Positions 7,801-53,983 of a stretch of 64,000 nt of DNA are shown here, piece after piece; the first letter of the stretch is position 1; every line of letters begins with the position of its first letter. Made by a program: the position numbers and the translations under genes. A model generated the notes under the pieces. That model did no database searches and was not told where the DNA came from. It worked only from the letters and a program-made list of their open reading frames with translations. Source of the DNA: an uncultured Bacilli bacterium. GTDB taxonomy: Bacteria; Bacillota_I; Bacilli_A; RF39; UBA660. The DNA is taken from the NCBI GenBank assembly GCA_947589105.1, contig CANQBL010000002.1, forward strand, positions 25,698 through 89,697, read 5' to 3'.

Positions 7801-8052
7801 ATGACCGAAAAAGTAAAAGCATTAATTGAAGAACCGCTAAAAAAAATTAACGTTAAATTGTGTAGTGTTAATTATGAAAAGGAGGGCTCCATTTATTTTT
7901 TACGTGTGGTAATTGATAAGGAACCTTTCGTGGATGTTGATACATGTGTTAGCGCAACGGAAATTATTAACCCCTTAATTGATGAAATAGAAGATGAATT
8001 TGAAGATGCATACGTACTTGATGTATGTTCTATGGAAAAAGGAGATAAATAA
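7801..8052 (+). CDS. rimP: Ribosome maturation factor RimP, N-terminal domain only (truncated relative to canonical ~150 aa)
   Basis: 83 aa with a strong RBS. LKKINVKLCSVNYEKEGSIYFLRVVIDKE...DVDTCVSATEIINPLIDE resembles the RimP N-domain, and the gene sits directly upstream of nusA as in Firmicutes. The C-terminal Sm-like domain is absent. Confidence 0.55.
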   Translation: MTEKVKALIEEPLKKINVKLCSVNYEKEGSIYFLRVVIDKEPFVDVDTCVSATEIINPLIDEIEDEFEDAYVLDVCSMEKGDK

Positions 8053-8054
8053 AA

Positions 8055-9140
8055 ATGAATAGTAAAGAATTTGTAAAAGCATTAAAAAACATTTGTGAAG
8101 AAAAAGGAATAAGTGAAGAAGTTATTTTCGATGGAATGGAAGTTGCTCTTCAAAAAGCTTATACTAAAGAAACGGGTCTTCCAAACATCAGAATTGATAT
8201 AAATAAAAAAACTGGAGAAATAAAAGGATACTCATATCAAAAAGTAGTAAAAGAATATACTGATGGTGAGGAAGATGAAGACGGAGAAGAGGTAGTAGAA
8301 ATATTACTTGAGGATGCTAAGAAGATTGTTCCAGATATAAAACCCGGAGAAACGATAGAAGAAGAAGTGGTTTTAAAAGATTTTGGTCGTGTTGCAACTA
8401 TGGCAGCTAAGCAAATATTAGTTCAAAAGGTAAGAGAAGCTGAAAGACAAAGTATAATGACTGAGTTTCAAGATAAAGAAGGTGAATTATTAGTAGGTAC
8501 TTTATCAAGGGAAGATTCTCAAAATTACTATGTTGATTTAGGTAGAATGCATGGTATACTTCCTAAAACAGAATTAATAAAAGGTGAAAATTTAACTATG
8601 GGTTCGGTAGTTAAGGTTTATGTTACAAAAATAGATGATACTGGTAAGAACCCTTTAATATTGTTATCAAGATCTCATTATGGTTTTGTAAAAAGATTAC
8701 TTGAAAATGAAATACCTGAGTTAAATGATGGAACGGTAATTTTATATAGTGTAGCAAGGGACGCAGGGGTAAGAAGTAAGATAGCTGTTTATTCTGAAGA
8801 TCCAAACGTTGATGCAGTTGGGGCTTGTATTGGAGAAAAAGGATCTAGAATTAACCGATTAACAGAAGAATTGGGTGGAGAAAAAATAGATGTTGTTATG
8901 TATGATAAAGATCCAGTAACCTTTATTAAAAATTCTCTTTCTCCTGCTAAGGATGTAAACGTTTACATATTAGATGATAAGAAAAAAGAAGCTTTAGCTA
9001 TTGCTGAAGGAGATAATTTATCATTAGCTATTGGTAAAAAAGGACAAAACGTAAGACTTGCAGCTCGTTTGACTCATTATAGGATAGACGTTAAAACAAA
9101 TGAGCAAGTTAAAGAAGAAAAAATAGTTTTAAATAAATAA
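8055..9140 (+). CDS. nusA: Transcription termination/antitermination factor NusA
   Basis: 361 aa; S1 and tandem KH regions (GACIGEKGSRINRLTEELGGEKIDVV, AIGKKGQNVRLAARLT); conserved position in the nusA-infB operon. Confidence 0.9.
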   Translation: MNSKEFVKALKNICEEKGISEEVIFDGMEVALQKAYTKETGLPNIRIDINKKTGEIKGYSYQKVVKEYTDGEEDEDGEEVVEILLEDAKKIVPDIKPGETIEEEVVLKDFGRVATMAAKQILVQKVREAERQSIMTEFQDKEGELLVGTLSREDSQNYYVDLGRMHGILPKTELIKGENLTMGSVVKVYVTKIDDTGKNPLILLSRSHYGFVKRLLENEIPELNDGTVILYSVARDAGVRSKIAVYSEDPNVDAVGACIGEKGSRINRLTEELGGEKIDVVMYDKDPVTFIKNSLSPAKDVNVYILDDKKKEALAIAEGDNLSLAIGKKGQNVRLAARLTHYRIDVKTNEQVKEEKIVLNK

Positions 9141-9166
9141 TGATAACATAGGGTAAGGTGATTTAA

Positions 9167-9436
9167 TTGAAACAAAAAAAAATACCAATGCGTTCTTGTG
9201 TTGTTACTAAAGAAAAGTATCCTAAAAAAGAACTTGTTAGAGTGGTTAAGGATAATAAGGGTTTAGTTTCAGTAGATTTAACTGGTAAATTAAATGGACA
9301 TGGAGCATACTTAAAAAAAGATATAGAAGTTGTTGATTTAGCAAGAAAAACTAAAGTCTTAGAACGTTATTTAAATACACAAATATCAGATGATATTTAT
9401 GATGAATTAAGGAGTGTTATAAGTAAGAATAGCTAA
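9167..9436 (+). CDS. ylxR: YlxR/RnpM family protein (DUF448)
   Basis: 89 aa, IPMRSCVVTKEKYPKKELVRVV..., between nusA and infB. Confidence 0.75.
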   Translation: MKQKKIPMRSCVVTKEKYPKKELVRVVKDNKGLVSVDLTGKLNGHGAYLKKDIEVVDLARKTKVLERYLNTQISDDIYDELRSVISKNS

Positions 9437-11602: not shown

Positions 11603-11941
11603 ATGAGTGTTAAAACAGATAGAATTGCAAATTTATTAATAAAAGAAATTAGTGAAATATTACAAAATGAAGTATATGATGAAGATATAAAATTTGTTAC
11701 AATAACTGCTTGTAAAGTAGATACAGATTTATCTTTGGCACAGGTTTATTGTACTGTATTAAATGATTCAAAAAAAGAAAAGTGTTTACATGATTTAAAT
11801 GCTGCTAAAGGTTTTATTAAAACTGAACTAGCTAAAAGAAAATTAGAAATAAGAAAGATACCGGATTTAAGATTTATATATGATGAATCTATATCTTATG
11901 GTACTAAAATAGAAAAAATTATAAAAGAAATAAACGAATAA
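11603..11941 (+). CDS. rbfA: Ribosome-binding factor A
   Basis: 112 aa with a KH-like fold, immediately after infB. Confidence 0.85.
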   Translation: MSVKTDRIANLLIKEISEILQNEVYDEDIKFVTITACKVDTDLSLAQVYCTVLNDSKKEKCLHDLNAAKGFIKTELAKRKLEIRKIPDLRFIYDESISYGTKIEKIIKEINE

Positions 11942-12088
11942 CTTGTTTATTTCTTTTTTAATACCCTTTATAATCAAAGTTAAAGTTTATTATGTTAGTT
12001 AATATAATCTAAAAAATAGTATTTTTTTGTAGAAATAATAATAAAAACAATGTATAATTATATTAGAGATAAGGTAAGGTGGTATTAT

Positions 12089-13447
12089 ATGATAAATTTA
12101 GTAAAAAAAGAAAATCTTAATCTTGGAATATTGGAAACTGATTTTGATGTTTTTGCTGATATTGTTAATACCTTTTCTAGCGAAGAAGCAAAAAAAGATT
12201 GTTTGCTTGATTTAGATGAGTATGTTATTCCACAATATTTTAGAAATAAAATTACATTAGTTGTTCAAACTAACAAGATGCTTATTGGATATACCACTTT
12301 TGAGTTTAAAAATAATAATAATATTTCTCAAGTTGAGATAAATAAATTATATGTTCTTGATGAGTTTAAAAATAAAAATATGGAAGCACTTTTGATTGAA
12401 GGAGTCATATATATTGCAGGGGAGGTTGGCTCTAGAAATGTTTTAGTTACGGTAGATGAACATAATTCTGGAATGCTTAAAATTTATCAATCTTTAGGTT
12501 TTTATGAGGTTGGTATAAACGAAACCGGAAATCTTTTAAGTGTAAATGTAAATTCAGCGGTTAGAATTAGAATGCTTAATGATAAATTTAGGAATATTCC
12601 AAGTGATTCAGTAGATTATAAAAGTTTAAAGTTAGTTAAGAAGATAACAACTGGAAGGTCAGGTAATATTTACTTAACTCAAGACGGAAGAATTCTTAAG
12701 ATGTTTACTTCTACTTCTTTTACCTATGTAAAAGATAGGGAAGAAACTATTAAATATATTAAAAGTCTTGATATTCCTGAAATTGTAAAACCAAAACATT
12801 TAGTTTACTATGATGGTATATTTGTTGGATACATAATGGAATATCTTCCAGAAGGTGATGCTTTATGCAAGAAGAGTGAAAGTTATAGTTTTGAAGAAAA
12901 AATTGACAAGATAAAAGAAATTGAAAGAGTTATGAAAAAACTTCATAAAGAAAAGATTTATATATGTGATTTAAATCCTGATAATATTTTCTTTGATAAA
13001 AATGGAAGAATTAAATTAATAGATTGTGATGCTTTTGTTGTTAAAGATAATGTTATTAATAATGAGGTTGATTTAAAATTTAGAGATCCTTTAAATAAAA
13101 TAGTTTCAGAAAAAACAGATTTGTATGCTTTTTCTATTACAACTTTACAACTTTTAATAGATAAAGAAATTCCTAATGATGCTAGTTTTTCAGAAGTAGA
13201 AAAGATATATAGTAAAAATAAAAATAAATTACCAATAAGTTTTAAAAATTATTATGATAATATATTTAAAGGAAAAGATCGCTATTACTTAACAGATTCT
13301 TACGAACGTTATTTAAATGAAATGTATACAATGGATGGAAATGATGATGAAGATAATAAAAGTGGTAGAATTAGTGTCATTATATTATCGTTTATAATGC
13401 TTGTAATTGCGGTTATTGGTTATTTTGTATTTAAATCTAGCAAGTAG
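12089..13447 (+). CDS. Fusion protein: N-terminal GNAT acetyltransferase domain, eukaryotic-like protein kinase-like domain, and C-terminal TM anchor
   Basis: ATG at 12089 follows the RBS AAGGTGG. The GNAT-like region reads ALLIEGVIYIAGEVGSRNV...KIYQSLGFYEV. Kinase-like elements: G-loop GRSGNIY, Lys motif ILKMF, catalytic loop ICDLNPDNIFF, DFG-like LIDCDAF. A C-terminal hydrophobic helix (ISVIILSFIMLVIAVIGYFVF) follows. Confidence 0.55.
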   Translation: MINLVKKENLNLGILETDFDVFADIVNTFSSEEAKKDCLLDLDEYVIPQYFRNKITLVVQTNKMLIGYTTFEFKNNNNISQVEINKLYVLDEFKNKNMEALLIEGVIYIAGEVGSRNVLVTVDEHNSGMLKIYQSLGFYEVGINETGNLLSVNVNSAVRIRMLNDKFRNIPSDSVDYKSLKLVKKITTGRSGNIYLTQDGRILKMFTSTSFTYVKDREETIKYIKSLDIPEIVKPKHLVYYDGIFVGYIMEYLPEGDALCKKSESYSFEEKIDKIKEIERVMKKLHKEKIYICDLNPDNIFFDKNGRIKLIDCDAFVVKDNVINNEVDLKFRDPLNKIVSEKTDLYAFSITTLQLLIDKEIPNDASFSEVEKIYSKNKNKLPISFKNYYDNIFKGKDRYYLTDSYERYLNEMYTMDGNDDEDNKSGRISVIILSFIMLVIAVIGYFVFKSSK

Positions 13448-13462
13448 AAACTTGCTTTTTTA
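13437..13462 (+). terminator. Rho-independent terminator
   Basis: GCAAG-tagaaa-CTTGC followed by TTTTTT, overlapping the stop codon. Confidence 0.6.
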
Positions 13463-13592
13463 ATTTTCTTAACAATTTAAAAAATATAAATAAAAAAGAA
13501 ATATTAACTGAAAAAATGTTATTAAAAAATATTGACAATTATTAAAGTTTGTGGTAGCATAACTGTCATTCAAACAAAAGGGGGAGATTTGA

Positions 13593-15605
13593 ATGAATTT
13601 ATTAAGCATTTTAGAAATTATATTTAATAATGCACAAAACGAAATACAAAAATCAAATTTAGAAGCTTCTGATGTAGCTAAACAAGAGGATAAACAATGG
13701 CTTGAAAAATTAAATAAAAAGTGTATTTTAAAAACAAATAACAAAGTTTATACTGCTAAAGAAGGAATTATTGAAGCCAAAAAGCAACGTAATAAAATTT
13801 TACTTGATTTAACAACTGGTAAGAATGATGAGAAAACTCAAATCAAATTAGGAGAAGACTTAGTTTATTTAAATAAAGTAATTTATAGTTATGACACTTG
13901 TTTTATTGAAAAAGAAAACGTTAAAAATGAAGCTATATTAATTGATGCTAAAAATAAAAAAAGTACGGCAGTAAAAAATGCTATTGAAGATTCAATTAAA
14001 AAAATTAACGAGCAAATAACTAAAATGGTAGGAGAACTTGACGAATTAAAACAGGATATAGTTAATTGCAACAATATAGAAGAATTAGACAAAAAATATG
14101 AAAAATATAAAAACATAGTTCAATTAAATAAATTTAAAAATGCTATGCAAGAACTTTTATCTATTAATGGAGTAATAAAAAGTGAAACTGCTTTAGCTTC
14201 TTTAAAAGAAGGACTAATTGATGAACATAAATCAGTTGTTGAGTCATATTATAAACTTATAATTCTTAACGGTATAAATTTAAAAAGACATACTAAATCA
14301 AAGGATACTGATTTTGGAAAATCAGATAATGAAAATGCAATTAATGAAATAAATTATTATTTTGATATAGCAAAGGAAAAAAATAGTAAAGAAGCTTTAA
14401 ATTATGCTGTTGATTTAATTAAACTAATAAATGACAAAGATTTAAGAGGCGATTTAGAATCTGAAGCTGCTTCAATTTCTTCTTTAATGAATACAAAACC
14501 TAAAAAAGATTTGTCTAAAGAAGTACAACAAGCAAAAGAATTAGTTGAAATAGTAAAAAAGACTGGAAAAGTAAAAGATTTTAAAAATGCTTTAAAGGCT
14601 AAAAATTCACTTCCTGAAGGTGAACAAAGAGATGAGATATCTAAAGAATTATTAGAGGTTTGTGAAAAAAATAAAAATAATTTTGATAAGTTATTTAATA
14701 AAATACTTGATGATATTTGTTTGGATAAAAATCTTCTAGAAGATGAAATAAATGAATTAACAGATCGTTATCAATATTTAAAAAAAGATTACGTATCTGA
14801 AATACAAAATGAATATGATAAAATTATAACGATTTATAATAATCAAGTTCAAAAACAATATCAAAAAAGTTTAAATGAAAAAGATATTGAAAAATATAGT
14901 GCTGCTGATAAGTTTAGAGAAATATTTGGTGGTATTATAGTTAACTTCTTTTCTGGTGCTATAAAAAATTCTCACTATCGTAAATTAAATAAATTACCAG
15001 AAAAATTATCTGAAGAAAAAAATGAAGCTGAAGAAAAGAAAATTTTAAATAAAATTAATAAAGTAAAAGAAGAAATTTCTGAAAGTGATGTTGTAAGTGG
15101 AATAAGATTATTTGTTTCAAGAAATAAACTAGCTAAGAAAAAGCCAAAATTATATAAAGAGGATGTTAATAATAAAGGATTTAAAAAAGTTAGTGAAGAT
15201 GAAATATTATATCAGACAAGAGAAACTGATAATATTAGTAAACTATTAACTCGTGGTTTAAATAAAAAGCTAAGAGATAGTAATATTTTAAATAGTAAAT
15301 CTCGTGCTATTACAATACTAGAACAATATTTAGAATTAATTTCTTCTGGTACTTATAATGCGGATTATGTGATAGAAGCTTATAATTTCTTAAAAAATGT
15401 AGAAGATGTTCTTTCAGAAAGTGAATATAAAGGATATTATGATGAAATTAGAATGATTGATGAATATCGTAAAAGTAATTATGGTATGCCTTATCATATG
15501 AATAATAAAGAAGATCATAACGAAGTTGATGATGTAATTAAATATTATGATAGTGAAGAATATCAAGAAGCTTTAAAAGAGGGAAGGTTTATTAAAAGGA
15601 ATTAA
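13593..15605 (+). CDS. Large (670 aa) charged coiled-coil hypothetical protein
   Basis: Strong RBS (AAGGGGGAGATTTGA-ATG). K/E-rich, predicted extended alpha-helical. No catalytic motif recognised. Confidence 0.5.
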   Translation: MNLLSILEIIFNNAQNEIQKSNLEASDVAKQEDKQWLEKLNKKCILKTNNKVYTAKEGIIEAKKQRNKILLDLTTGKNDEKTQIKLGEDLVYLNKVIYSYDTCFIEKENVKNEAILIDAKNKKSTAVKNAIEDSIKKINEQITKMVGELDELKQDIVNCNNIEELDKKYEKYKNIVQLNKFKNAMQELLSINGVIKSETALASLKEGLIDEHKSVVESYYKLIILNGINLKRHTKSKDTDFGKSDNENAINEINYYFDIAKEKNSKEALNYAVDLIKLINDKDLRGDLESEAASISSLMNTKPKKDLSKEVQQAKELVEIVKKTGKVKDFKNALKAKNSLPEGEQRDEISKELLEVCEKNKNNFDKLFNKILDDICLDKNLLEDEINELTDRYQYLKKDYVSEIQNEYDKIITIYNNQVQKQYQKSLNEKDIEKYSAADKFREIFGGIIVNFFSGAIKNSHYRKLNKLPEKLSEEKNEAEEKKILNKINKVKEEISESDVVSGIRLFVSRNKLAKKKPKLYKEDVNNKGFKKVSEDEILYQTRETDNISKLLTRGLNKKLRDSNILNSKSRAITILEQYLELISSGTYNADYVIEAYNFLKNVEDVLSESEYKGYYDEIRMIDEYRKSNYGMPYHMNNKEDHNEVDDVIKYYDSEEYQEALKEGRFIKRN

Positions 15606-15746
15606 TTAACCTTCTTCTTTTTTTATAAAATAATACAAAGAAGAATTCTTGATATATAAAATAAAATAATATAAAATATAGTTGTAATAAAAAATATATA
15701 CTTTAAGTTTGTTTTACTTCCGTAATTTTAAAAAGTGGTGATATAA

Positions 15747-16598
15747 ATGGATGGTATAATTATTGTCAATAAACCTAAAGCAATGACTAGTAGGGGTGTT
15801 GTAAATGATGTAGGTAAAATACTAAAAACTAAAAAAATAGGTCATACTGGAACTCTTGATCCGCTTGCTACAGGAGTACTTGTTTTATGTATTGGAAAAG
15901 CCACTAAATTAGTTGAGGTTTTAACTAGCAATGATAAGGAATACATAGCAACGGTTAAATTAGGAATATTAACAGATACATTAGATATTGAAGGTAAGAT
16001 TTTAAAAAAGAAAAACGAAAAATTAGATAAAAATAAATTAATAGAAGTATTAAATTCTTTTATTGGAACGTATAATCAAGAAGTTCCTGTTTATAGTGCT
16101 GTTAAAATAAAAGGTAAAAAATTATATGAGTATGCAAGATGCGGTATTAAAGTAGAACTTCCAATAAAAAAAGTTACCATTAAAAATATAGAATTATTAG
16201 AATATTTAGAGGATTCTTATACTTTTAAAGTAACAGTAACTAAAGGAACTTACATAAGAAGTTTAATAAGAGATATTAATCAAAAACTAAATATAATAGG
16301 GGTAATGAGTGATTTAAAGAGAATAAAACAGGGTATTTTTGATATAAAAGATTCTTATTTGTTAGAAGATATAAAAAATGGAAATTATAAAATGTTATCT
16401 ATAACTGATGTTTTAAAAGATGAAAATAGTGTTATAATAGAAGAAAAATTATATAATATAATTAAAAATGGTGGTTTAATAGACAATATTTATAATAAAA
16501 ATTACGTAGTTTTTATTTATAAAGATGAGGTTATTGCAATATATAAAAAATATGATAAAGATAATACAAAAATGAAACCATATAAAATGTTTATTTAA
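15747..16598 (+). CDS. truB: tRNA pseudouridine(55) synthase TruB
   Basis: GIIIVNKPKAMTSRGVVNDVGKIL..GHTGTLDPLATGVLVLCIGKATK carries the catalytic Asp motif. Confidence 0.9.
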   Translation: MDGIIIVNKPKAMTSRGVVNDVGKILKTKKIGHTGTLDPLATGVLVLCIGKATKLVEVLTSNDKEYIATVKLGILTDTLDIEGKILKKKNEKLDKNKLIEVLNSFIGTYNQEVPVYSAVKIKGKKLYEYARCGIKVELPIKKVTIKNIELLEYLEDSYTFKVTVTKGTYIRSLIRDINQKLNIIGVMSDLKRIKQGIFDIKDSYLLEDIKNGNYKMLSITDVLKDENSVIIEEKLYNIIKNGGLIDNIYNKNYVVFIYKDEVIAIYKKYDKDNTKMKPYKMFI

Positions 16599-16611: not shown

Positions 16612-17634
16612 ATGAATAATTCAGTTTTTCTTATAAAAAACATAAAGAAAGAAGAAGATGTTAAAAAAATAAAAGAATTTTTATCAATATACGTTAACAA
16701 TGGTTTTTCTACGGAAAGTTTACTTGAAGTAGCTAAAGATTTTAAAGAAAGTAAACGTAATTTAGTACTTGATTATTTAGTGGATACGTCAATATTAAAT
16801 TTAAGTAAAATAGCGGGAAGCAATTATTTAAAAGATACTGACAAAGTTTATGTTATAAAAAAATTAATAGATAATGATAAAGATATTTTGCCGTTAGCTT
16901 ACTTAATAATGAACCACGTAGACGATCCTAAAAAATACTTTACTTCACATGAAATAAATTTAATTTTGAAAGACGTTGATACTAAAGAAATAATAGAAAG
17001 TTATGGTACTTATTTTGCTAGTTATTTATTAGATAAACCTAATTATTATTATCTTTTAGAAATAAAAAAAGATTTAAATAGCAGTGTATTAAACGAGGTT
17101 TATATAAAATCTTTTTGTTCAAAAGATGATTATTTAATTGTTATTAATTATTTAAATAATGAAGAAAAAAAAGATTATGTAGATAAGTTTTTAAATTACA
17201 AAGAAGCTAATTATGAAATAGCTTATGATATTTTAAAAAATAAATATTATAAGAAAGAAGATCATGAAAAATTATTAAAAATAATATCAGGTGCAAAAGC
17301 AAGTATAATATATGAAATATTAATGGAAGAACCATTAAACGAAAAAGAAAATAAAATGTTAGAAAAAGCTCTTTTAAAAACTGGTGATATAGAATATATA
17401 GCCTATTATTATTTCTTTAAAAATAAAGAAAAGTTTATTTTATTATTCGGTAGTTCATTATTATTTTTATCTTTTGTAGCATTAAATAAAAATACATTCA
17501 AAAATAAAAAATTATTAAATACTATTACAAAAATTATAAAAGATGAAGAAGCTTATTTTAGCGAAGAAGTTAAAACAAATGTTGATATTGCTTATCATAA
17601 AATGCAAAAAAATGTTAGTAACAGTAAAAAGTAG
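16612..17634 (+). CDS. Hypothetical protein with C-terminal TM segment (occupies the usual ribF position)
   Basis: 340 aa with a strong RBS. No FAD synthetase or riboflavin kinase motifs. Confidence 0.45.
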   Translation: MNNSVFLIKNIKKEEDVKKIKEFLSIYVNNGFSTESLLEVAKDFKESKRNLVLDYLVDTSILNLSKIAGSNYLKDTDKVYVIKKLIDNDKDILPLAYLIMNHVDDPKKYFTSHEINLILKDVDTKEIIESYGTYFASYLLDKPNYYYLLEIKKDLNSSVLNEVYIKSFCSKDDYLIVINYLNNEEKKDYVDKFLNYKEANYEIAYDILKNKYYKKEDHEKLLKIISGAKASIIYEILMEEPLNEKENKMLEKALLKTGDIEYIAYYYFFKNKEKFILLFGSSLLFLSFVALNKNTFKNKKLLNTITKIIKDEEAYFSEEVKTNVDIAYHKMQKNVSNSKK

Positions 17635-17770: not shown

Positions 17771-18037
17771 ATGTTAAAGAAAGAAGTTAAACAAGCTATT
17801 ATTAAGAAATATGCTACTCACGAAGGAGATACTGGATCACCTGAGGTGCAAATTGCTGTTCTTACTGAAGAAATTAATGCTTTAACTGCTCATTTAAAAG
17901 AAAACATTCATGATTTTCACTCAAAAAGAGGTTTGTTAATGAAAGTAGGTAAAAGAAGAAACTTACTTAATTACTTAAAAAAAGCTGACATTAACAGATA
18001 TCGTGAAATAATTAAGAGCTTAGGTTTAAGAAAATAA
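17771..18037 (+). CDS. rpsO: 30S ribosomal protein S15
   Basis: 88 aa; [11 protein letters not shown]...[16 protein letters not shown] is the classic S15 sequence. Confidence 0.95.
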
Positions 18038-18100: not shown

Positions 18101-20296
18101 ATGGAAAAAAGAATATTTGAAACAGAATTTAGAGGAAAAAATTTAACTGTAGAAATAGGGGAACTTGCAAAACAAGCACATGGTGCAGTACTTGTAAGGT
18201 ATGGAGATACTGTTGTTTTATCAACCGTATGTGTAAGTAAAACGGCTAATGTTTTATCTGATTTTTTCCCACTTATGGTTTTATATCAAGAAAAGTTATA
18301 TTCAGTAGGTAAAATACCAGGGGGATTTATTAAAAGGGAAGGAAGACCAACGGAAAATGCAACTTTAGCAGCTCGCATGATTGATAGACCAATGCGTCCT
18401 TTATTTCCTGAAAACTTTAGAAATGAAGTACAAATAGTTAATACAGTATTATCGGTAGATCCTGACAATTCACCAGAATTAGCAGCTATGTTTGGCTCAT
18501 CTCTTGCAACTTGTATTAGTAAGGTGCCATTTGATGGTCCGATTGCAGGAGTTAAGGTAGGAAGAGTTGATGGACAATTAGTAATTAATCCAAGTATTGA
18601 ACAAATTGATGCAAGTGATATAGATTTAATTGTTGCAGGAACAAAAGATGCTATTAACATGGTTGAGGCAGGAGCTAAAGAAGTATCTGAAGAAGATATG
18701 TTACAAGCTCTTATGTTTGGTCATGAAGCAGTAAAAGAACTTATTAAGTTTGAAGAAAAAATAATTAAAGAAGTTGGACAAGAAAAAATGGAATATGAAG
18801 TTCTTGAAATAACTGATGAACTTCGTGAAGAAATATATGGGCTTGCAAAGGATCCTTTTGATAAAGCAATGCGCATTAAAGATAAACTAGAAAAATATGA
18901 AGCCATTGATAAAGTAAAAGAAGAAGTTGTTGCTAAGTTTGAGTATGAAAACGAAGCCTTGGATAAAGAAGAACTTAACGAGTTAATAACAAAGGTAAAA
19001 TTATGTTTATCTGAAGTAGAATACGAAGTATTTAGGAAAATTGTTGTTAAGGAAAAAAAGCGTGCTGATGGTAGAAAAATGACCGAAATAAGACCTCTTT
19101 CAACAGATATAGATTTACTTCCAAGAACTCATGGTTCAGCATTATTTACCCGTGGTGAAACACAAAGTTTATCAGTTGTAACATTAGGTGCTTTAGGAGA
19201 ACATCAAATAATAGATGGACTTTCCCCAGAAGATCAAAAAAGGTTTATGTTACATTATAACTTTCCTCAATTTTCGGTTGGTGAAACGGGAAGATATGGA
19301 GCTCCAGGACGTCGTGAAATAGGTCATGGTGCATTAGGTGAGAGGGCACTTTTACAAGTTATTCCATCCGAAGAAGAATTTCCATATACTATTCGTGTTG
19401 TATCAGAAATATTAGAATCAAATGGTTCTTCATCTCAGGCTTCTATTTGTGCTGGTTGTATGGCTTTAATGGCTGCTGGTGTTCCGATTAAAGCACCTGT
19501 AGCAGGAATCGCAATGGGTCTTATTACTGATGGTGATGATTATACGATTTTAACTGATATTCAAGGTATGGAAGATCATTTAGGAGACATGGACTTTAAA
19601 GTTGCAGGAACAAAAGATGGAATTTGTGCCCTTCAAATGGATATTAAAATTAAAGGTATAACTAAAGAGATATTAAAAGAAGCTCTAGCACAAGCTAAAA
19701 AAGCTAGACTTGAAATATTAAAAGTAATTGCTAAACAAATAAAAGAGCCTAGAAGCGAAGTTAGTAAGTATGCTCCAAAAACCCTTACCTTTACAATTGA
19801 TCCTACCAAAATAAAAGATGTTATTGGAAAAGGCGGAGAAATGATAACAAAAATTATTCTTGAAGCTTCAAACGTAGAAACTGTAACTGATATGAACGCG
19901 GTAAAAGTTGATATAGAAGAAGATGGTAGGGTAATTATTTATCATACTGATAAAGATATAATTGAAAAAACTGCCCAAATGATTAAAAACGTAGTAAAAG
20001 AAGTTGAAGTAGGTAAAATATATACAGGAAAAGTTGTTAAAGTAATTGATGAATTGGGTTGCTTCGTAGAGTTATGGGAAGGCTGTGAAGGTTTAGTTCA
20101 TATCTCTCAATTATCTGATAAGAGGGTAGAAAAAACAACGGATGTTGTTTCTGTTGGAGATGAAATAATTGTTAAAGCAATAGGATTTAAAAATGGAAAA
20201 CTTAACTTATCTAGAAAAGAAGCTTTAGTTAAAGATAAAATAAATGATGAAAATATTTCAAAAAAAGAAACTAACAAAAAGGAGAAAACAGAGTAA
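18101..20296 (+). CDS. pnp: Polyribonucleotide nucleotidyltransferase (PNPase)
   Basis: 731 aa with two RNase PH domains, a KH domain and an S1 domain. Confidence 0.95.
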
Positions 20297-22373: not shown

Positions 22374-23336
22374 ATGAGTCAAATAGGTAAAAGTAAATTA
22401 TTTAATAGTGCCTTAAGTAAGCTTTCAGAGCAAGACTTTAAAGCAAGAGCAATAGTTTCATATAATAAGCAATTAGATGGAGTTACTAATTCAATTAAAA
22501 GAGGTGAATTAGATAAAGAAGCATTAAGAAAATTAGGAGATTCATATAATTATTTGACAAAAATATATATTGAAACTTTAAAAGAAGATTATAATAAGGT
22601 AGAAGATAAATCAAATTTTAATGATTTAACAGCATTATATATATTAAATAATTTTACAAAGTTATGTCCAAGTAAAATATTATTACCTTATTATGAAAGA
22701 TTATCTTTTTTAAGAAAACAATTAGAAAAAGAGTTTGATATAGAACTACAATTAGGAATTATGCTAAGAGCAAGTTTAATTATTAATAGATTTTCTAAAA
22801 TACAAAGAAAAGATGCTATTGAAAAGTTTGTTAAAATGTTAGAAAATTCAAAAGAATTTGATAGTAATATTTTATACATTATATATTTTGGTTTATTTGA
22901 TGGAACAATAAATAATAGCCTTATTTTAGATAAAGAAGAAATAATAAATAATCATGAGATAGCTTGGGAACTTTTAAATAATACAGAAAACTTACCGGAT
23001 AGTATAATAAAAGAATTATGCGTAGATAAACAGTTTGAAAATGTTAAACCTCAAATAGTAATATTTATTATGAATTTATTTTTTATGTTTAGAGTGTTTC
23101 CAAAATTACCAGATGATGATATGTTAGATATAATACAAAAAATATTTAACAATAACGTTAGGAATTTTAATAGTAAAGCGGAGTTTTTAGATTTGCAAAA
23201 ACTTATTGAAAAAGTTGAACGAACTTTTTCAAAGGTAAATCTAAGTGATGAATTTACGAATTATTTTGTTGAGATTGTAAATGGATTAGAAGTTTTAGAT
23301 AGAAAGGAAGAAAGTAAAAACTATGGGTCTTTTTAG
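22374..23336 (+). CDS. Hypothetical protein (overlaps ftsY start by 14 nt)
   Basis: 320 aa with a strong RBS (AGGAGGATAATCTAT-ATG). No family recognised. It sits where smc normally precedes ftsY. Confidence 0.5.
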   Translation: MSQIGKSKLFNSALSKLSEQDFKARAIVSYNKQLDGVTNSIKRGELDKEALRKLGDSYNYLTKIYIETLKEDYNKVEDKSNFNDLTALYILNNFTKLCPSKILLPYYERLSFLRKQLEKEFDIELQLGIMLRASLIINRFSKIQRKDAIEKFVKMLENSKEFDSNILYIIYFGLFDGTINNSLILDKEEIINNHEIAWELLNNTENLPDSIIKELCVDKQFENVKPQIVIFIMNLFFMFRVFPKLPDDDMLDIIQKIFNNNVRNFNSKAEFLDLQKLIEKVERTFSKVNLSDEFTNYFVEIVNGLEVLDRKEESKNYGSF

Positions 23337-33252: not shown

Positions 33253-34032
33253 ATGATAAAGAAAAAACAAATAGTAGATCCCAAAAAAATAATGTATGCA
33301 CATTTAGCTAGATTAACAGCTGAAGATTTAGAAATTAATAAGTTAAATAATGTTAATTTAAGGTGTACTAATGAAAGCTACATCGTTGGTAAATTAGAAG
33401 AAGATAAATATGGGGTTAGAAAGTTTTTGGATATTATGCAAGACGATTCTTTTGGGTATTTATATTTTGATAAAGTATCTGATGCTGAAAATACTTTAAA
33501 ACCATATTATCAAGATGAAGTTTTTGTTATATATGCAAAACCTTTAACTGATTTAGGAATAACAAATCCTTGTACAAAAGATGAATTAAAAAGAAAGCTA
33601 CTTAATTCGGGAATTTACTTTAATTTTTCTTATTTAGATCCTGAAAACACTATGTATGCTAATTTAGCAGAATTTACTAGCCAGGACATATTAGAAAATG
33701 AGAGTAATAGCTCTATTTTAAGTTTCACAAACAAATCTTATATTGCTGGACAAATATCAGAAAAAGAAAATGGTTCTTTAGTATTTTGTGATATGGTAAG
33801 CAAAAAAACAAAACAGTATGAATATTTTAAAGACTTAAAAAAGGCATATAATACTCTTAAAACAGAGGATAAAAAAATTTTTGTTATTAATGCTAAACCT
33901 TTAACAGAAATTGGAATTAACGAATTATATACCGCTAAAGAATTAAGAGATGAATTAGTTAATAGTGATTTAAAATTTAATTTTTTAGATGACGAAGCTA
34001 TAGAAAAAGAAAAAGCAAGAATAAAAAAATAG
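33253..34032 (+). CDS. Hypothetical protein with two tandem ~120-aa homologous repeats, embedded in the suf operon
   Basis: Repeat 1 (MYAHLARLT...AKPLTDLGI...FNFSYLD) and repeat 2 (MYANLAEFT...AKPLTEIGI...FNFLDD) are about 35% identical. Strong RBS. Confidence 0.55.
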   Translation: MIKKKQIVDPKKIMYAHLARLTAEDLEINKLNNVNLRCTNESYIVGKLEEDKYGVRKFLDIMQDDSFGYLYFDKVSDAENTLKPYYQDEVFVIYAKPLTDLGITNPCTKDELKRKLLNSGIYFNFSYLDPENTMYANLAEFTSQDILENESNSSILSFTNKSYIAGQISEKENGSLVFCDMVSKKTKQYEYFKDLKKAYNTLKTEDKKIFVINAKPLTEIGINELYTAKELRDELVNSDLKFNFLDDEAIEKEKARIKK

Positions 34033-40468: not shown

Positions 40469-40786
40469 TTGCTTAAAGTATTAATGGAATTTAGGAAGGG
40501 AATTCTTTTCGTAAGACTTTATGGAAAACTAGATGATACAACTTTAGATATCTTTGAAAATGATGTTAAGGAGGTGATTATTCAATCTGGTATAAGATAT
40601 GTTGTTTTAAATACTTATAATTTGGAAAGTATATCTAATGAAGGAATTAAGCAGATAAAGCGCCTAAGACGAATACTTAAAAAGACAGATGGTGAATTTT
40701 TCTTGTTTGGAGGGGAAATAAAAGAACTCAAATCTCTGGTCAATCTAGAAAACGAACTAAAGGTATTTGAAAGGGTTGTGATATAG
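40469..40786 (+). CDS. spoIIAA: Anti-sigma factor antagonist (STAS domain; SpoIIAA-like)
   Basis: 105 aa; TTG start after AGGAGG. STAS fold with a candidate phospho-Ser in LESISNEG, aligned to DSSGLGV of SpoIIAA. Confidence 0.7.
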   Translation: MLKVLMEFRKGILFVRLYGKLDDTTLDIFENDVKEVIIQSGIRYVVLNTYNLESISNEGIKQIKRLRRILKKTDGEFFLFGGEIKELKSLVNLENELKVFERVVI

Positions 40787-41454
40787 TGATAGAACAAGCT
40801 TACGAAAAAGTAATCAATCAAAATAGTAAATTAGTATATGGTATTTGCTCTAAATATAGTAATTATAAAGATAAGGAAGACTTACATCAAGTAGGAATGT
40901 TAGGTCTTATAAAAGCCTATAATAATTATGACAATAATAAAAATACTAAATTTTCTACTTATGCTTTTCCATACATTGTAGGAGAGGTAAGTAAATACGT
41001 AAGAGAAAATAAATCTATAAAGGTAAGTAAAGATTTAATTAGGCTAGGAAGAAAGATAAATGAATATATTGATAAACATTTTGAAGTAAGAGGTTATAAA
41101 CCATCTATTAGTAACATAGCTTTAATGTTAGAAGTTAAAGAAGAAAAAGTAATTAGTGCGCTAGATGCTTACGGAATGATTACTAAAAGTTTGGATGAAG
41201 AAATAAATGATGATGGTAAAACAATTACTCTTTTAGACGTAACTCCTACTGAACAAAAGATAAGTAATGAGCAAATGATGGATTTAAAAGAGGCTTTTGA
41301 GTGCTTAAGCGAGCAAGAAAAAGAATTACTAATAAATAGATATTTTAAGGACTTAACACAAAGTGAGGTAGCAGAATTATTTGGTGTTAATCAAGTATAT
41401 GTGTCAAGGTTAGAAAAAAAAGCTTTGACTAAAATGAAAAATAAGATGTCTTAG
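40786..41454 (+). CDS. sigF: Sporulation sigma factor, SigF/SigG family
   Basis: GTG start overlaps the spoIIAA stop (taGTG). Region 2 (KFSTYAFPYIVGEVSKYVRENKSIKVS) and region 4 (YFKDLTQSEVAELFGVNQVYVSRLEKK) are near-identical to B. subtilis SigF/SigG motifs. Confidence 0.8.
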   Translation: MIEQAYEKVINQNSKLVYGICSKYSNYKDKEDLHQVGMLGLIKAYNNYDNNKNTKFSTYAFPYIVGEVSKYVRENKSIKVSKDLIRLGRKINEYIDKHFEVRGYKPSISNIALMLEVKEEKVISALDAYGMITKSLDEEINDDGKTITLLDVTPTEQKISNEQMMDLKEAFECLSEQEKELLINRYFKDLTQSEVAELFGVNQVYVSRLEKKALTKMKNKMS

Positions 41455-46230: not shown

Positions 46231-47262
46231 ATGATTGGCGTAATAGAAAGGGTTAAGAATAACGTTCTTTTAAAGTGTAGCGCTTTAAATGATAAAATTA
46301 TTTCTAAAACCCTAATTGATATTATAAATGAAGGCATATATCATTTTGCGGAAGATTTAATGAGTTTGATAAGTGATATAAATTTTGATTTAACAGAAGA
46401 CGACTTACGTAAAAAAACTAGTGATATTATTAAAGTTTTAATTATTAAGAAAATAAAAAGAAAACTTTTTATTGATTCGCTTGCACTTCAAATAACAAAT
46501 GATTCGTATATTGAGGATTATTTTAATAAAAATATTAATTTAGATGAAATAAAAAATTCGTATATTAAAGAACTTAATGTTAATAAAAGTTCTAACCAAC
46601 TTAATATGACAGAAGATCTTAATCTTAATGAAATAATTCAAAATTTACGATTTTATATTAATGAAAATATTACTAACAGTATAAAAGAAAACGTTTTTTT
46701 AGTAAATGCGATAGATTCTTTGATAGAAAAAACAAAAAGTGAATTAGAACAAAGCTTGCAAAATATGATTAATGTTGCGGATTTAAATTATTTGGATATT
46801 TTAACTAACGAATTAAAAGAAAATATGAATGAAGAGAATAAAAAAGTAGAAAAAGGGGAAGAAAAGATGATGGAAAATGAAAGTATAGTTACAAATGATA
46901 ACTTAAAAGAAAACATTCATGATATTAACAAATTTGATAAATATGATGATATGACATTGTTTAATAAAACGATTTTAAGTCTTAATACAAAAGAAGAAAA
47001 ATTAACAAGAAAAGAAAATAGTTTAGAAAAAAGAAAAGAAGAAGTTGACGAACGTTTGAGTGCTACAAATAAAAATATTGAGGCAAACATTGAAAGGGAA
47101 AATAAATTATCTCAAAAGAAGTTAGAATTAAATTCAAAAGAAGTAGAACTTAATTCTAAATTATCAGAGGCTGAGGTAATATTCCTTAATATGAAACCTC
47201 TTATTAAAGGTTTGAACAAAATTATGGTTTCTGATGAGAAAGGTGGTAATGATGGTGAGTAA
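46231..47262 (+). CDS. Hypothetical acidic coiled-coil protein
   Basis: 343 aa with a strong RBS (AAGGAGGCTAGTT-ATG) and an E/K/N-rich C-terminal coiled coil. Confidence 0.45.
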   Translation: MIGVIERVKNNVLLKCSALNDKIISKTLIDIINEGIYHFAEDLMSLISDINFDLTEDDLRKKTSDIIKVLIIKKIKRKLFIDSLALQITNDSYIEDYFNKNINLDEIKNSYIKELNVNKSSNQLNMTEDLNLNEIIQNLRFYINENITNSIKENVFLVNAIDSLIEKTKSELEQSLQNMINVADLNYLDILTNELKENMNEENKKVEKGEEKMMENESIVTNDNLKENIHDINKFDKYDDMTLFNKTILSLNTKEEKLTRKENSLEKRKEEVDERLSATNKNIEANIERENKLSQKKLELNSKEVELNSKLSEAEVIFLNMKPLIKGLNKIMVSDEKGGNDGE

Positions 47263-48586
47263 ATTATTAAGTAGTGTTTTAGATAAAGTTAGTGAAGATA
47301 ATAACTCATATCGAATGAATCTAAGAAATTTAAATAAAGCCATCGATGAAAAAACAACTGCGTTAGTAGGTGATGTTGTTACCCTTTCTAATTATACGAT
47401 AGATTTTTCTAATGCAGTAATAACTGCAAAGGATATGCTAGTAAATCCAATATCAAGAGTAATAGAATCGTATGTTATTAAAGATTTAAGAAGTGTTGAA
47501 ACAGTAAATGAGCAATTTGTTGATAAGATAAACGATAAAATCGATAATTCAAGTATAAATAATTTTAATGAAAAGGATAGTTTTATACAAAATCTAGATT
47601 CATTGTTAAATGATAAATATTTAGAAATAGTTAAAATAAAACGGGTTAACTTTTTAAATGAAAAAGAAGAAAATGAGGATATTAAATCTGCTATTAATAA
47701 CTTTATTTCATTTTTAAAAAATGCTACTAATTTTGAAGATAATAAATTAGAAAATTTAATGTTAACATATGAAAAAGATTTATATAATATTATATCTTTA
47801 ACTTTAGACGAAATTAGCAAGTTATATTTGAATAATTTTGTTAGTGAAGTAACAAGTTCTTTAAACGCTAATTTAAATGTTGGTGAAACAATACAAAATT
47901 TAAATTCTACTGATGATTCTTTTGTTCCTTACATGCCAGATATTAAACCAGTTTTAGAAACGGGAGTACCACCAGTTCCAGAAATACCAGTGATTTCAAA
48001 TGATAGTAATTCTGATATTCAAAATGTTACTTCTTCAGTTCCAGAAATTCCAACAATAGAAGAAAACAAAGTACTTCCTATGGATATTCCTTCAATTGCT
48101 CCGATAGAAATAACTGATAAAAATAAGGAAGAAGAAGTAAAGAAAACTTATGATGTTGAAGAAATTCTTAAGATAGCTAAATCTCCAGTTGCTTCTTTAC
48201 CTATAGAGGAAAAGAAAAATGATAGTGATTATTTATCTGTGGCACCAATTTCTGTGAAAGAAGAAAGCGATGTAATTGATTCTGAATTTGATGAAAAAGA
48301 AATAGTTGAAGAAATGATTGCTAGATTATCAAAACGATTAGATCTTATAAACGAAAGACAGAAAAAATATGAAGAAGAAAAACAAAAATTAGAAGAAGAT
48401 GAAAGCTTTGTTAATGATTTAATTAATAGTTCTAATGCTAAAAAAGAAGAATTAGATAAATTTGAAGAGGAATTAAATAACAAAGAAAAAGAAATCGAAG
48501 AAAAACAAAAAGAATTAGATAAAAAAATTAATGATGTTTTACCTTTTGCAGATGCAATAATGAAAACAGAACACGAAGAGGCTTAA
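47252..48586 (+). CDS. Hypothetical acidic protein with Pro-rich linker and C-terminal coiled coil
   Basis: Start placed at the ATG after AAAGGTGG; overlaps the upstream gene by 11 nt. Contains PVLETGVPPVPEIPVIS...PEIPTIEE and a C-terminal EEEKQKLEE coiled coil. Confidence 0.45.
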   Translation: MVSKLLSSVLDKVSEDNNSYRMNLRNLNKAIDEKTTALVGDVVTLSNYTIDFSNAVITAKDMLVNPISRVIESYVIKDLRSVETVNEQFVDKINDKIDNSSINNFNEKDSFIQNLDSLLNDKYLEIVKIKRVNFLNEKEENEDIKSAINNFISFLKNATNFEDNKLENLMLTYEKDLYNIISLTLDEISKLYLNNFVSEVTSSLNANLNVGETIQNLNSTDDSFVPYMPDIKPVLETGVPPVPEIPVISNDSNSDIQNVTSSVPEIPTIEENKVLPMDIPSIAPIEITDKNKEEEVKKTYDVEEILKIAKSPVASLPIEEKKNDSDYLSVAPISVKEESDVIDSEFDEKEIVEEMIARLSKRLDLINERQKKYEEEKQKLEEDESFVNDLINSSNAKKEELDKFEEELNNKEKEIEEKQKELDKKINDVLPFADAIMKTEHEEA

Positions 48587-48620: not shown

Positions 48621-48656
48621 ATACATATAGTTAATTAGAAAGATATGGAGGATAAT

Positions 48657-49157
48657 ATGATTAATAAACAAAAATTGTGGTTTTTAACTTTATTTAGCTT
48701 AATACTTGTTTTGAGTGTATATTATATTACTATGCCTAGTGAACTATTGACTACTACCAAAACTAATAGCAATAAAGAAAAAACAAATACCGATAAAGTA
48801 AATGTAACAGAAACGGATTTTTTAACGGCACTTCAAGTTGAAGCTGATGAAGAACGAGCTTCTTTAGCGGCAGAGTATAATGAAATATTAACTAACAAAG
48901 ACACTACAACAGAAGAAAAAAATAATGCTTATGATGGTCTTAAAGAAATAGATGAGATAAAAGCAAAAGAAGAAGAATTAGAAAAAAAATTGAAAAAACA
49001 ACTAAAGCTTGATTCTTTCATTAAAATTGATTCAAATAATGTAAGTGTAACTATAAAGAAAAAAGATCATGATTATTCTCTTGCAAACAATGTAATGAGA
49101 CTCATTCAAGAAGAATATCAGAACAAGATGTATGTTTCTGTAAAATTTCAAAATTAA
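48657..49157 (+). CDS. spoIIIAH: Stage III sporulation protein AH (SpoIIIAH-like)
   Basis: ATG after GGAGG. MINKQKLWFLTLFSLILVLSVYYITMPSE closely matches the B. subtilis SpoIIIAH N-terminus (MLKKQTVWLLTMLSLVVVLSVYYIMSPES); the C-terminus has a YscJ/FliF-like domain. Confidence 0.7.
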   Translation: MINKQKLWFLTLFSLILVLSVYYITMPSELLTTTKTNSNKEKTNTDKVNVTETDFLTALQVEADEERASLAAEYNEILTNKDTTTEEKNNAYDGLKEIDEIKAKEEELEKKLKKQLKLDSFIKIDSNNVSVTIKKKDHDYSLANNVMRLIQEEYQNKMYVSVKFQN

Positions 49158-49236
49158 GTACCTTTTTATGCCTTTACTCATAAAATAATATAGAAAAATA
49201 TTAAAATACCTCTTATTATAGGAAAGTGGGGAAAAT

Positions 49237-49443
49237 ATGGGAAAGGCAATACTAACTAAAAGGGAAAAAGAAATCTTTGATTATCTTATAACGAATAAAA
49301 CTACTAAGGATATAGCAATAAAACTAGGAATAAGTGAAAAAACAGTTAGGAATCACATATCTAACGTAATGCAAAAACTTGGCGTTAAAGGAAGAGCTTG
49401 TGCGGTAATTGAACTTATAAAATTAAATGAGATTACTTTATAA
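49237..49443 (+). CDS. gerE: LuxR-type spore germination/late mother-cell transcription regulator GerE
   Basis: 68 aa; ILTKREKEIFDYLITNKTTKDIAIKLGISEKTVRNHISNVMQKLGVKGRACAVIELIK is near-identical in pattern to B. subtilis GerE. Confidence 0.85.
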   Translation: MGKAILTKREKEIFDYLITNKTTKDIAIKLGISEKTVRNHISNVMQKLGVKGRACAVIELIKLNEITL

Positions 49444-49470
49444 AATCGCATATTAAATGCGATTTTTTCA
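49444..49470 (+). terminator. Rho-independent terminator after gerE
   Basis: AAATCGCAT-attaa-ATGCGATTT followed by TTTCAT. Confidence 0.7.
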
Positions 49471-49491
49471 TATAATGTAAAGGAGGTAACC

Positions 49492-50496: not shown

Positions 50497-50573
<77 letters not shown>

Positions 50574-53722: not shown

Positions 53723-53983
53723 GTGATACATTTGAACATTAGAAGAATCATTAATGATTATGTAGAATGTAATAATTTTGAAATAAAGTTTACTAATGGT
53801 AAAGTTATAGTATATTACCATGATAAAATTGAGCATTTTTCCAGTGATACTATAATTGTTTCAAAAGAAGGAAAAAAATATAAAATAGAAGGGAAGAATA
53901 TGGTTATTGAAACGATGTTTAAGGAAATGATTATTATTTCTGGAACGATATATAAAATAACATTAGGTAACAAAGATGAATAA
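53723..53983 (+). CDS. yqfC: YabP/YqfC family sporulation protein
   Basis: 86 aa with a GTG start. Small beta-rich protein immediately upstream of the yqfD-like gene, overlapping it by 8 nt; same position relative to rpsU as in Bacillus. Confidence 0.55.
   Translation: MIHLNIRRIINDYVECNNFEIKFTNGKVIVYYHDKIEHFSSDTIIVSKEGKKYKIEGKNMVIETMFKEMIIISGTIYKITLGNKDE

Follow-up and report, generated by a model that had tools for sequence, protein, structure and literature searches.

We analysed a 64,000-nucleotide window of DNA from an uncultured Bacilli bacterium of the order RF39 (contig CANQBL010000002.1, positions 25,698 to 89,697), which has a G+C content of around 25% and carries, on its + strand, the genes rimP, nusA, ylxR, infB, rbfA, ORF-A, ORF-B, truB, ORF-C, rpsO and pnp in this order, followed by an RNase J gene on the − strand. 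The subject of this study is the open reading frame (ORF) named ORF-A (12089..13447, 452 amino acids (aa)), which encodes a Hanks-type kinase with a previously unreported input-domain architecture, consisting of a GNAT-fold domain, the kinase domain and a C-terminal transmembrane (TM) helix, and which is confined to one RF39 family. Together with ORF-B (13593..15605, 670 aa), it lies between rbfA (11603..11941, 112 aa; Pfam RBFA 2.5e-31) and truB (15747..16598; TIGR00431 3.4e-68), and all of the features of this locus described below are also on the + strand. Pfam searches confirmed the RBFA, TruB_N and YlxR domains at the locus, and both the placement of the ORFs and the presence of two genes between rbfA and truB are as a sequence-only reading of the same DNA had proposed. 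The absence of ylxQ and ribF, claimed in that reading, is upheld by the gene coordinates and family scans. Only 18 bp lie between the last base of ylxR (9436) and the first of infB (9455), which establishes that ylxQ is absent at the locus, and no ribF was found between truB and rpsO (17771..18037), which is itself followed by pnp (18101..20296). The place where ribF often sits is taken by ORF-C (16612..17634), a 340-aa orphan with one hydrophobic segment (aa 276–292) and no Pfam or NCBIfam match.

The longest reading frame of ORF-A starts at 12050, but the true start is the ATG at 12089, because a ribosome-binding site, AAGGTGG (12076..12082; GGTGG or GGAGG is kept in relatives), sits 6 nucleotides (nt) 5' of that ATG, a promoter-like −10 hexamer falls within the longer frame, the listed homologues are 451–456 aa long (one is 465 aa) and start with MINLVKK, and public gene callers report a 452-aa product. 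The protein is composed of a GNAT-fold domain (aa 1–165, 12089..12583), which is PaiA-like and without the canonical acetyl-CoA loop, a conserved linker plus a eukaryotic-type protein-kinase domain (aa 166–415, 12584..13333), and a C-terminal TM helix (aa 428–448, 13370..13432) with the sequence ISVIILSFIMLVIAVIGYFVF. This helix is the sole hydrophobic segment of the protein (Kyte-Doolittle windows of at most 2.55), is followed by only four residues, and is kept in all orthologues; the juxtamembrane stretch is acidic (MDGNDDEDN). Because the single hydrophobic segment is near the C-terminus, ORF-A is predicted to be tail-anchored, with the GNAT and kinase domains in the cytoplasm. An AlphaFold2 model, built with 29 orthologues, has a predicted local distance difference test (pLDDT) value of 84.5 and a predicted template-modelling score (pTM) of 0.78, and shows a GNAT-like domain, a bilobal kinase, four C-lobe helices and a long terminal helix (424–451), in this order. 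The motifs GRSGNIY, ICDLNPDNIFF and DCDAF are all present in ORF-A and conserved. The combination of GNAT, eukaryotic-type kinase and C-terminal TM helix, first noticed from the letters and their translation, is thus borne out by Pfam, PDB profiles, the AlphaFold2 model and hydropathy.

The central domain matches Pfam Pkinase (PF00069) with an E value of 1.1e-10 and 41.7 bits against a cut-off of 31.7, over aa 197–389 of the 465-aa form, and the orthologue P0132, which is 44% identical, reaches 40.0 bits. A profile of the kinase domain (16 orthologues) matched JAK2, RIPK1, the Staphylococcus aureus kinase 4eqm (E = 1.1e-6) and Aurora B in the PDB, and a phmmer search of the PDB gave ROCK, RSK, Aurora and PKA as well as, once more, 4eqm. 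When the ORF-A model was compared with the PDB using Foldseek, the best 50 matches listed were all protein kinases (Aurora A and JAK2/3 among them), each with probability 1.0, and their template-modelling scores (target) were 0.43–0.69 over 238–386 aligned columns. The sequence-only reading had named the alternative that the N-terminal region is not a GNAT fold and that the central region is an aminoglycoside phosphotransferase (APH) instead of a protein kinase. What we found is a PaiA-like GNAT fold and protein-kinase matches: ORF-A has no Pfam match to APH (PF01636) at E ≤ 0.1, only sub-cut-off matches to Kdo, ABC1 and FAM69, and no APH structure is among the best 50 Foldseek and the best 60 profile matches listed for the PDB, which are all protein kinases.

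The active site was examined in the window sequence plus 32 orthologues (n = 33). The β3 Lys, K204 of LKMF, is present in all 33, lies within a predicted strand (202–206) and is aligned to the VAVK Lys of JAK2. The αC Glu (E218/E219, within helix 211–225) and the αC motif KDREET are equally invariant (33/33), as is the Asn N299, while the catalytic Asp D294 occurs in 32 and the DFG-like Asp D312 (of IDCD), which is aligned to the DFG Asp of ROCK2, in 30; the αF motif TD(L/M/I)YAF is retained in all orthologues. The distances from D294 to N299 (five residues) and from N299 to D312 (13 residues) are the same as those in PKA, where the equivalents are D166, N171 and D184. Other parts of the active site are atypical, as the sequence-only reading had claimed for the catalytic loop, which is ICDLNPDN in place of HRDLKxxN; both the His and the Arg of HRD are replaced, and the loop Lys is substituted by Asn. 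The Gly-rich loop, GRSGNIY, is GxxG instead of GxGxxG; G189 is found in 31 of the 33 sequences, and G192 is replaced by Ser in P0132 and in the orthologue of locus L031, and by Thr in that of locus L030.

Because ICD stands for HRD, the ORF-A kinase is of the non-RD type, and the activation segment of the window protein, which contains no Ser, Thr or Tyr from DCD to RDP, fits such a kinase. ORF-A is most likely a Ser/Thr kinase independent of activation-loop phosphorylation, as far as its residues can tell. Since the Lys, Glu, Asp, Asn and DFG-like Asp are kept in 30–33 of the 33 sequences, most of the orthologues are probably active kinases, and the earlier suggestion of a pseudokinase is weakened. 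Exceptions to the pattern are found in three loci. The L022 orthologue (8001–9356 of that locus) has Asn for the catalytic Asp (YICNLDPSN) and Gly for the DFG-like Asp (LIGCDSF), and those of L025 and L027 have lost the DFG-like Asp alone (to Gly and Asn, respectively); all three proteins are full length and otherwise conserved.

The assignment of aa 1–165 to the GNAT fold is sound. Pfam Acetyltransf_1 (PF00583) is matched with an E value of 2e-4 and 22.0 bits against a cut-off of 20.7, a profile of this region (17 orthologues) found Bacillus subtilis PaiA (1TIQ, E = 8.9e-8) first in the PDB and then about 40 further GNAT structures, and the strand and helix order in the AlphaFold2 model, β1-α1-α2-β2-4-α3-β5-α4-β6-7, fits GNAT. 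The canonical acetyl-CoA pyrophosphate loop, Q/RxxGxG/A, is found in none of the 33 orthologues. Its position is occupied in ORF-A by FKNKNME, with the G-x-G aligned to N97 and E99 in three PDB alignments, so that K-N-K-N-M-E stands opposite QKHGLG in PaiA, KRTGVG in 8osp and QGQGLG in GNA1. The loop nearest to the canonical form is R-Q-K-G-M-E, in L019, and the final position is acidic (Asp or Glu) in 32 of the 33. In contrast to this loop, the surface-loop residues ILETDFD, Y133 and GF..G (of YxxLGFxxxG) are invariant or almost so, and Y133 appears to be aligned to the residue that we take to be the general-acid Tyr of SSAT-type GNATs. We infer that the GNAT fold has given up the standard mode of acetyl-CoA binding, and that it is a regulatory or docking module; the proposal that the protein could both acetylate and phosphorylate loses much of its force.

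Homologues of ORF-A form 236 clusters in a collection of 5.8 billion proteins, and each of the 120 that were listed has an identity of 74% or more and a length of 451–465 aa. One of the homologues is labelled 'hypothetical protein [Bacilli bacterium]', and NCBI annotation gives nothing beyond hypothetical protein. A HMMER search of 1.84 billion representatives at 50% identity found three full-length clusters, namely that of ORF-A itself, P0130 (63%) and P0132 (44%); the other strong matches are fragments, and those weaker than about E = 1e-14 are all generic kinases or GNATs. In a scan of the GTDB species genomes, ORF-A was recognized in 32 species, all of them uncultured gut metagenome-assembled genomes (MAGs), including Clostridium sp. 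CAG:594 and Candidatus Aphodocola excrementigallinarum. Candidatus Aphodocola is the GTDB genus CAG-594 of the family CAG-433, order RF39 (PMC8035907).

The position of ORF-A is nearly constant in these genomes. Of the 32 loci, 28 have rbfA on the 5' side of ORF-A, in 26 cases with no gene between the two, and truB is 3' of ORF-A in all 25 loci that are long enough to show this. An extra gene of around 1 kb separates rbfA from ORF-A in L003 and L024, and rbfA was not seen in L005, L022, L025 and L026; the contig stops just upstream in L005 and L026, and a rearrangement has affected the upstream half of the locus in L022 and L025, both of which are also among the loci without the DFG-like Asp. 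An ORF for a C-terminal fragment of EF-Tu is found at 6052–6477 of L022. Synteny persists at an ORF-A identity of 44–45%, where that of infB is 61–62%, and in the main clade the ORF-A identity to the window (64–87%) runs parallel to those of infB and nusA. Searching 72,556 plasmids with tblastn gave no full-length or kinase-domain match and only two unrelated GNAT genes, and the same search of 50,697 phage records gave no match of any kind. As judged from these comparisons, ORF-A is a real gene, vertically inherited and restricted to one clade (RF39, family CAG-433).

ORF-A and ORF-B are not the only genes found within this block. A glyA-like serine hydroxymethyltransferase gene, identified by eye as were the two that follow, lies between infB and rbfA in L016 (6301–7539) and L027 (6279–7514), and the extra genes between rbfA and ORF-A are a type IV pilin-like gene (KGFTLIELLAVIVVL) in L024 (7046–7897) and a gene for a secreted protein in L003 (7222–7893). 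The segment from ORF-A to truB varies from 99 bp in L031, which has no ORF-B, up to 4.7 kb. Gene order in these relatives indicates that the nusA-infB-rbfA-truB block is an insertion hot spot in the family CAG-433.

Promoter-like and terminator-like signals, which are predicted only, as consensus and hairpin matches in the DNA, separate ORF-A from its neighbours. A terminator-like hairpin (11925..11959), which overlaps the rbfA stop codon, has a 13-bp stem and −10.7 kcal/mol in RNAfold and is followed by UUUUUU; a similar hairpin with a T-run is found after rbfA in L030 and L031. A consensus scan placed a promoter-like site, TAGAAA-17-TATAAT (12030..12058), 31 nt 5' of the ORF-A start. TATAAT is found at this position in 33 of 33 loci, and the complete TAGAAA-N16-18-TATAAT in 28 of them. 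Another terminator-like hairpin with a T-run (13439..13464; terminator scan, −8.6 kcal/mol) follows ORF-A, whose stop codon is accompanied by such a hairpin and T-run in most of the orthologous loci as well. The promoter and terminator that had been proposed for ORF-B were both recovered, as TTGACA-17-TAGCAT with TG (13532..13560; consensus scan) and as a hairpin with −15.3 kcal/mol in RNAfold followed by a U-run (15575..15625), and TTGACA recurs 3' of ORF-A in many of the related loci. No RNA element was detected in or near the locus when the window was scanned with Rfam and for tRNAs.

Because these promoter and hairpin signals are conserved, ORF-A and ORF-B seem to be separate transcription units in a former operon. 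The statement that they are inserted into the operon consequently holds for their position and not for the transcription unit, given the ORF-A promoter, the terminator-like hairpins and the other insertions in relatives. Coupling of ORF-A with rbfA and truB in one operon was considered and rejected on the grounds of its own conserved promoter and the hairpins on both sides, and because ORF-A and ORF-B appear to form transcription units of their own, their standing next to rbfA and truB argues only weakly for a link in function. Nor is the position of ORF-A a sign that it is co-regulated with ribosome maturation.

The reading that we favour, and regard as somewhat probable, is that ORF-A is an active, non-RD, tail-anchored Ser/Thr kinase, in which the GNAT fold regulates the kinase or docks its substrates. 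The single C-terminal helix would hold the protein in the membrane with the body of GNAT and kinase domains facing the cytoplasm. With the ATP-binding, Mg-binding and catalytic residues intact, the kinase would work without phosphorylation of its activation loop, and the GNAT fold, rigidly coupled to the kinase N-lobe, would serve to regulate the kinase, to sense a ligand or to dock substrates. Since the gene carries a conserved promoter of its own and lies between terminator-like hairpins, its place next to rbfA and truB would go back to an insertion, in an ancestor, into a block that this clade has split into separate transcription units. In bacteria, the control of Hanks-type kinases is usually exerted by extracellular sensor domains, such as PASTA, or through phosphorylation of the activation loop. 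ORF-A would exemplify another arrangement, in which a pseudo-acetyltransferase has been recruited as the input or docking domain of a kinase, and it marks a strongly conserved, clade-specific signalling gene in RF39, a widespread, uncultured, small-genome gut lineage.

Several observations weigh against this reading. The losses of Asp in the full-length proteins of L022, L025 and L027 suggest that some of the function is perhaps non-catalytic. With Asn for the loop Lys, the HRD His and Arg missing and GxxG in the Gly-rich loop, kinase activity could be weak, or the substrate could be something other than protein. As for the GNAT fold, Y133 may leave room for residual or non-canonical acyl transfer, and the regulatory role is deduced solely from the missing motif and the two-domain model (pTM 0.78).

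The last point bears on an alternative that we consider unlikely, in which ORF-A is a dual writer whose GNAT domain acetylates, and whose kinase domain phosphorylates, the same or neighbouring proteins, among them perhaps ribosomal proteins and translation factors. Purifying selection is equally strong on the two domains, with a median pairwise ratio of nonsynonymous to synonymous substitution (dN/dS) of 0.13 for GNAT and 0.12 for the kinase, and the near-invariance of ILETDFD, Y133 and GF..G would suit such a writer, as would the translation genes adjoining ORF-A and weak matches to the RimI/bS18 acetyltransferases (TIGR01575 9.6e-4; 9mto 0.011). However, the acetyl-CoA loop is lacking throughout the family, with an acidic residue at its last position in all but one of the sequences, and adjacency says little for a gene with its own promoter and terminators in a block where unrelated glyA and pilin-like genes have been inserted in relatives. 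The RimI matches are below the family cut-offs and weaker than those to PaiA, and a RimI link was rejected for this reason. The polyamine N-acetyltransferases PaiA and SSAT are the closest solved relatives of the GNAT domain, with the same fold order and the C-terminal YxxLGF motif; the NCBIfam model for PaiA (NF053587) is matched with 2.8e-5 and 23.9 bits against a cut-off of 250. PaiA differs from ORF-A in having Q-K-H-G-L-G as the CoA loop, where ORF-A has K-N-K-N-M-E, and the GNAT domain of ORF-A is fused to a kinase.

In a bolder version of the favoured reading, the GNAT fold is a metabolite sensor for acyl-CoA, a polyamine or a related amine that gates the kinase allosterically, the targets being proteins of ribosome maturation or of translation, or ORF-B. 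We regard this as rather improbable in its full form. If it were true, ORF-A would link the metabolic state directly to translation or sporulation in a reduced-genome, spore-forming gut lineage, and would represent a mode of Hanks-kinase regulation not described before in bacteria, in which a pseudo-acetyltransferase provides the input.

A little more doubtful still is the possibility that ORF-A is a pseudoenzyme scaffold, neither domain being catalytic, which organizes other proteins such as ORF-B at the membrane. The atypical ICDLNPDN loop and the degenerate Gly-rich and GNAT loops would agree with this, and so would the three full-length proteins without the DFG-like Asp, one of which (L022) is also without the catalytic Asp. 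Retention of the β3 Lys, αC Glu and catalytic Asp and Asn in 32–33 of the 33 sequences, down to 44% identity, is nevertheless not expected of a scaffold.

The notion that ORF-A is a kinase of anti-phage defence, and that ORF-B partners it as a variable sensor or effector, is highly improbable. It arises from the top NCBIfam and PADLOC matches of ORF-A, which are defence kinases (MADS6 3e-8; mad6 1.3e-9, MkoA and PD-T4-6), and from ORF-B, which is fast-evolving and has tandem copies in four species. These matches amount to about 33–36 bits on the generic kinase core, and NF047741 (MADS6) reaches 32.6 against a cut-off of 460, compared with 41.7 for Pkinase. Neither ORF-B nor ORF-C has a PADLOC match, L031 keeps ORF-A without ORF-B, and ORF-A is slow-evolving and fixed in position across 32 species, unlike the patchy genes of defence systems. 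Since NCBIfam, PADLOC and PHROGs give only generic kinase or GNAT matches, membership in a defence system was rejected.

The weakest candidate is a bifunctional small-molecule or resistance enzyme comparable to AAC(6')-Ie-APH(2'')-Ia, which likewise has GNAT and then a kinase fold in one chain of similar length (479 aa, against 452 aa with a GNAT domain of around 170 aa in ORF-A); DLNPDNIFF...IDCD loosely resembles the APH pattern HGDLxxxN...IDxG, and there are weak AAC matches (NF033083 0.008; several AAC entries in the PDB with E values of 0.1–0.6). The comparison fails because kinase type, mobility and membrane anchor all differ: AAC(6')-Ie-APH(2'')-Ia is a soluble enzyme of APH type (PF01636) that acts on aminoglycosides and is carried on transposons and plasmids, whereas ORF-A is of protein-kinase type, above the Pkinase cut-off and with protein kinases as the best PDB matches listed, has a TM anchor, and occupies a fixed chromosomal position in 32 species with no plasmid homologue. 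This identity, checked with Pfam, PDB profiles, Foldseek and tblastn of plasmids and phages, is rejected and hardly credible.

Under the favoured reading of a tail-anchored kinase, the closest functional analogue of ORF-A is YabT of B. subtilis, a Hanks-type Ser/Thr kinase with one C-terminal TM helix and no ectodomain that is expressed in sporulation (PMC6333020, PMC3708118). The two proteins have in common the C-terminal TM anchor, a cytoplasmic Hanks kinase and the lack of an extracellular sensor, and both hosts are spore-formers, that of ORF-A putatively. YabT lacks a GNAT domain, and its activation runs through a basic, DNA-binding juxtamembrane region, in contrast to ORF-A, in which this region is acidic and the extra module is N-terminal. 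YabT does not appear in the list of the 60 best PDB matches, and no specific sequence relationship was seen.

The kinases of the PknB/PrkC/Stk1 group share the fold and the core catalytic residues with ORF-A, but are RD kinases with HRDLKPxN and DFG, in which an N-terminal kinase domain is followed by a TM segment and a PASTA ectodomain, and whose activation occurs by phosphorylation of the loop. ORF-A, with ICDLNPDN and DCD, belongs to the non-RD kinases; it lacks an ectodomain, and GNAT is its N-terminal domain. The prkC operon of Firmicutes also holds ribosome-related genes such as rsgA/cpgA. A link to Bud32 and KEOPS was rejected; the NCBIfam match to Bud32 (1.7e-7) is far below the cut-off and weaker than that to Pkinase.

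Outside its own family, the kinase domain is most closely related to stand-alone kinases of approximately 240–270 aa from low-GC Bacilli and Mollicutes-like MAGs, with 25–35% identity. They show the same pattern, (I/L)FK(I/M)F ... EE(K/T)(E/L)RN ... FVGY(I/V)MEY(I/L)P ... Y(I/L)(C/G)D(L/V)..DN, but have neither GNAT nor a TM helix and are found in an unrelated genomic context. Examples are the 257-aa kinases at 7905–8678 of L033 and at 7905–8678 of L037 (YLGDVHSDN ... IDLEE), from Mycoplasma-like and Erysipelotrichaceae MAGs. Many stand-alone kinases of 220–270 aa are found among the representative matches, and these barely reach Pfam Pkinase. Word searches of the open-access literature, a weak negative, found no description of a fusion between GNAT and a Hanks kinase.

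ORF-B is rich in K (15%), E (11%) and N (10%) and has no hydrophobic segment. It had been described as a coiled-coil protein, which is not borne out as such; the AlphaFold2 model is all-α, with medium confidence (pLDDT 69.7, pTM 0.35). No match was found in Pfam, NCBIfam, PADLOC or PHROG, and nothing significant in the PDB, the best Foldseek E value being 0.12 and the best profile match a designed helical repeat (E = 0.008). Only nine homologues, with 38–56% identity, are detectable in the collection of 5.8 billion proteins, and the related loci contain 27 members of the ORF-B family, which form one BLAST cluster. Tandem pairs, with strongly diverged copies within each pair, are found in L011, L012, L019 and L024, L028 has a distant member (family hidden Markov model, 4e-16), and an unrelated ORF of 506 aa is at the ORF-B position in L030. 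Where the identity of ORF-A is 64–88%, that of ORF-B is 24–56%. Several motifs in the C-terminal half are conserved, namely ELTDRYQYL, YNNQVQNEYQ, SRNKLAKKKxKLYK, SRVITILDQYLELIxSGTY and EVDDVIKYYDSDxY...RYIKRK, and because these are well conserved ORF-B is a real protein family beyond low-complexity sequence. As ORF-B co-occurs with ORF-A almost constantly, one might guess that it is a partner or substrate of ORF-A.

ORF-C has 16 homologues in the 5.8 billion proteins and, as in Pfam and NCBIfam, no family match in PADLOC or PHROG; it is absent from the divergent lineage represented by L030 and L031. By these comparisons, both ORF-B and ORF-C are clade-restricted and fast-evolving. At the other end of the locus, rimP (7801–8052) encodes only 83 aa, around half the usual length, with a RimP_N domain only, and has the same short form in all of the related loci.

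The remainder of the window contains several ORFs of 250–450 aa without a Pfam match at E ≤ 1e-5 (22374–23336, 46231–48586 and 33253–34032), including one directly 5' of ftsY as well as two, of 343 and 450 aa, that come as a pair after a YfhO-like gene. Sporulation-type genes, encoding SpoIIIAH-like, GerM-like ('Germane' domain) and YqfD proteins, are located at 48645–50448 and 53976–55148, and also at 40786–41454; a factor of the sigma-70 family is among these loci, and the source contig has a CotZ-like gene. From its gene content, the RF39 lineage of the window seems to form spores. The region 50841–52892 encodes an ABC transporter whose N-terminal domain is a C39 peptidase, of the type that exports bacteriocins or peptides, and a tRNA-Arg gene (50497–50573) adjoins it.

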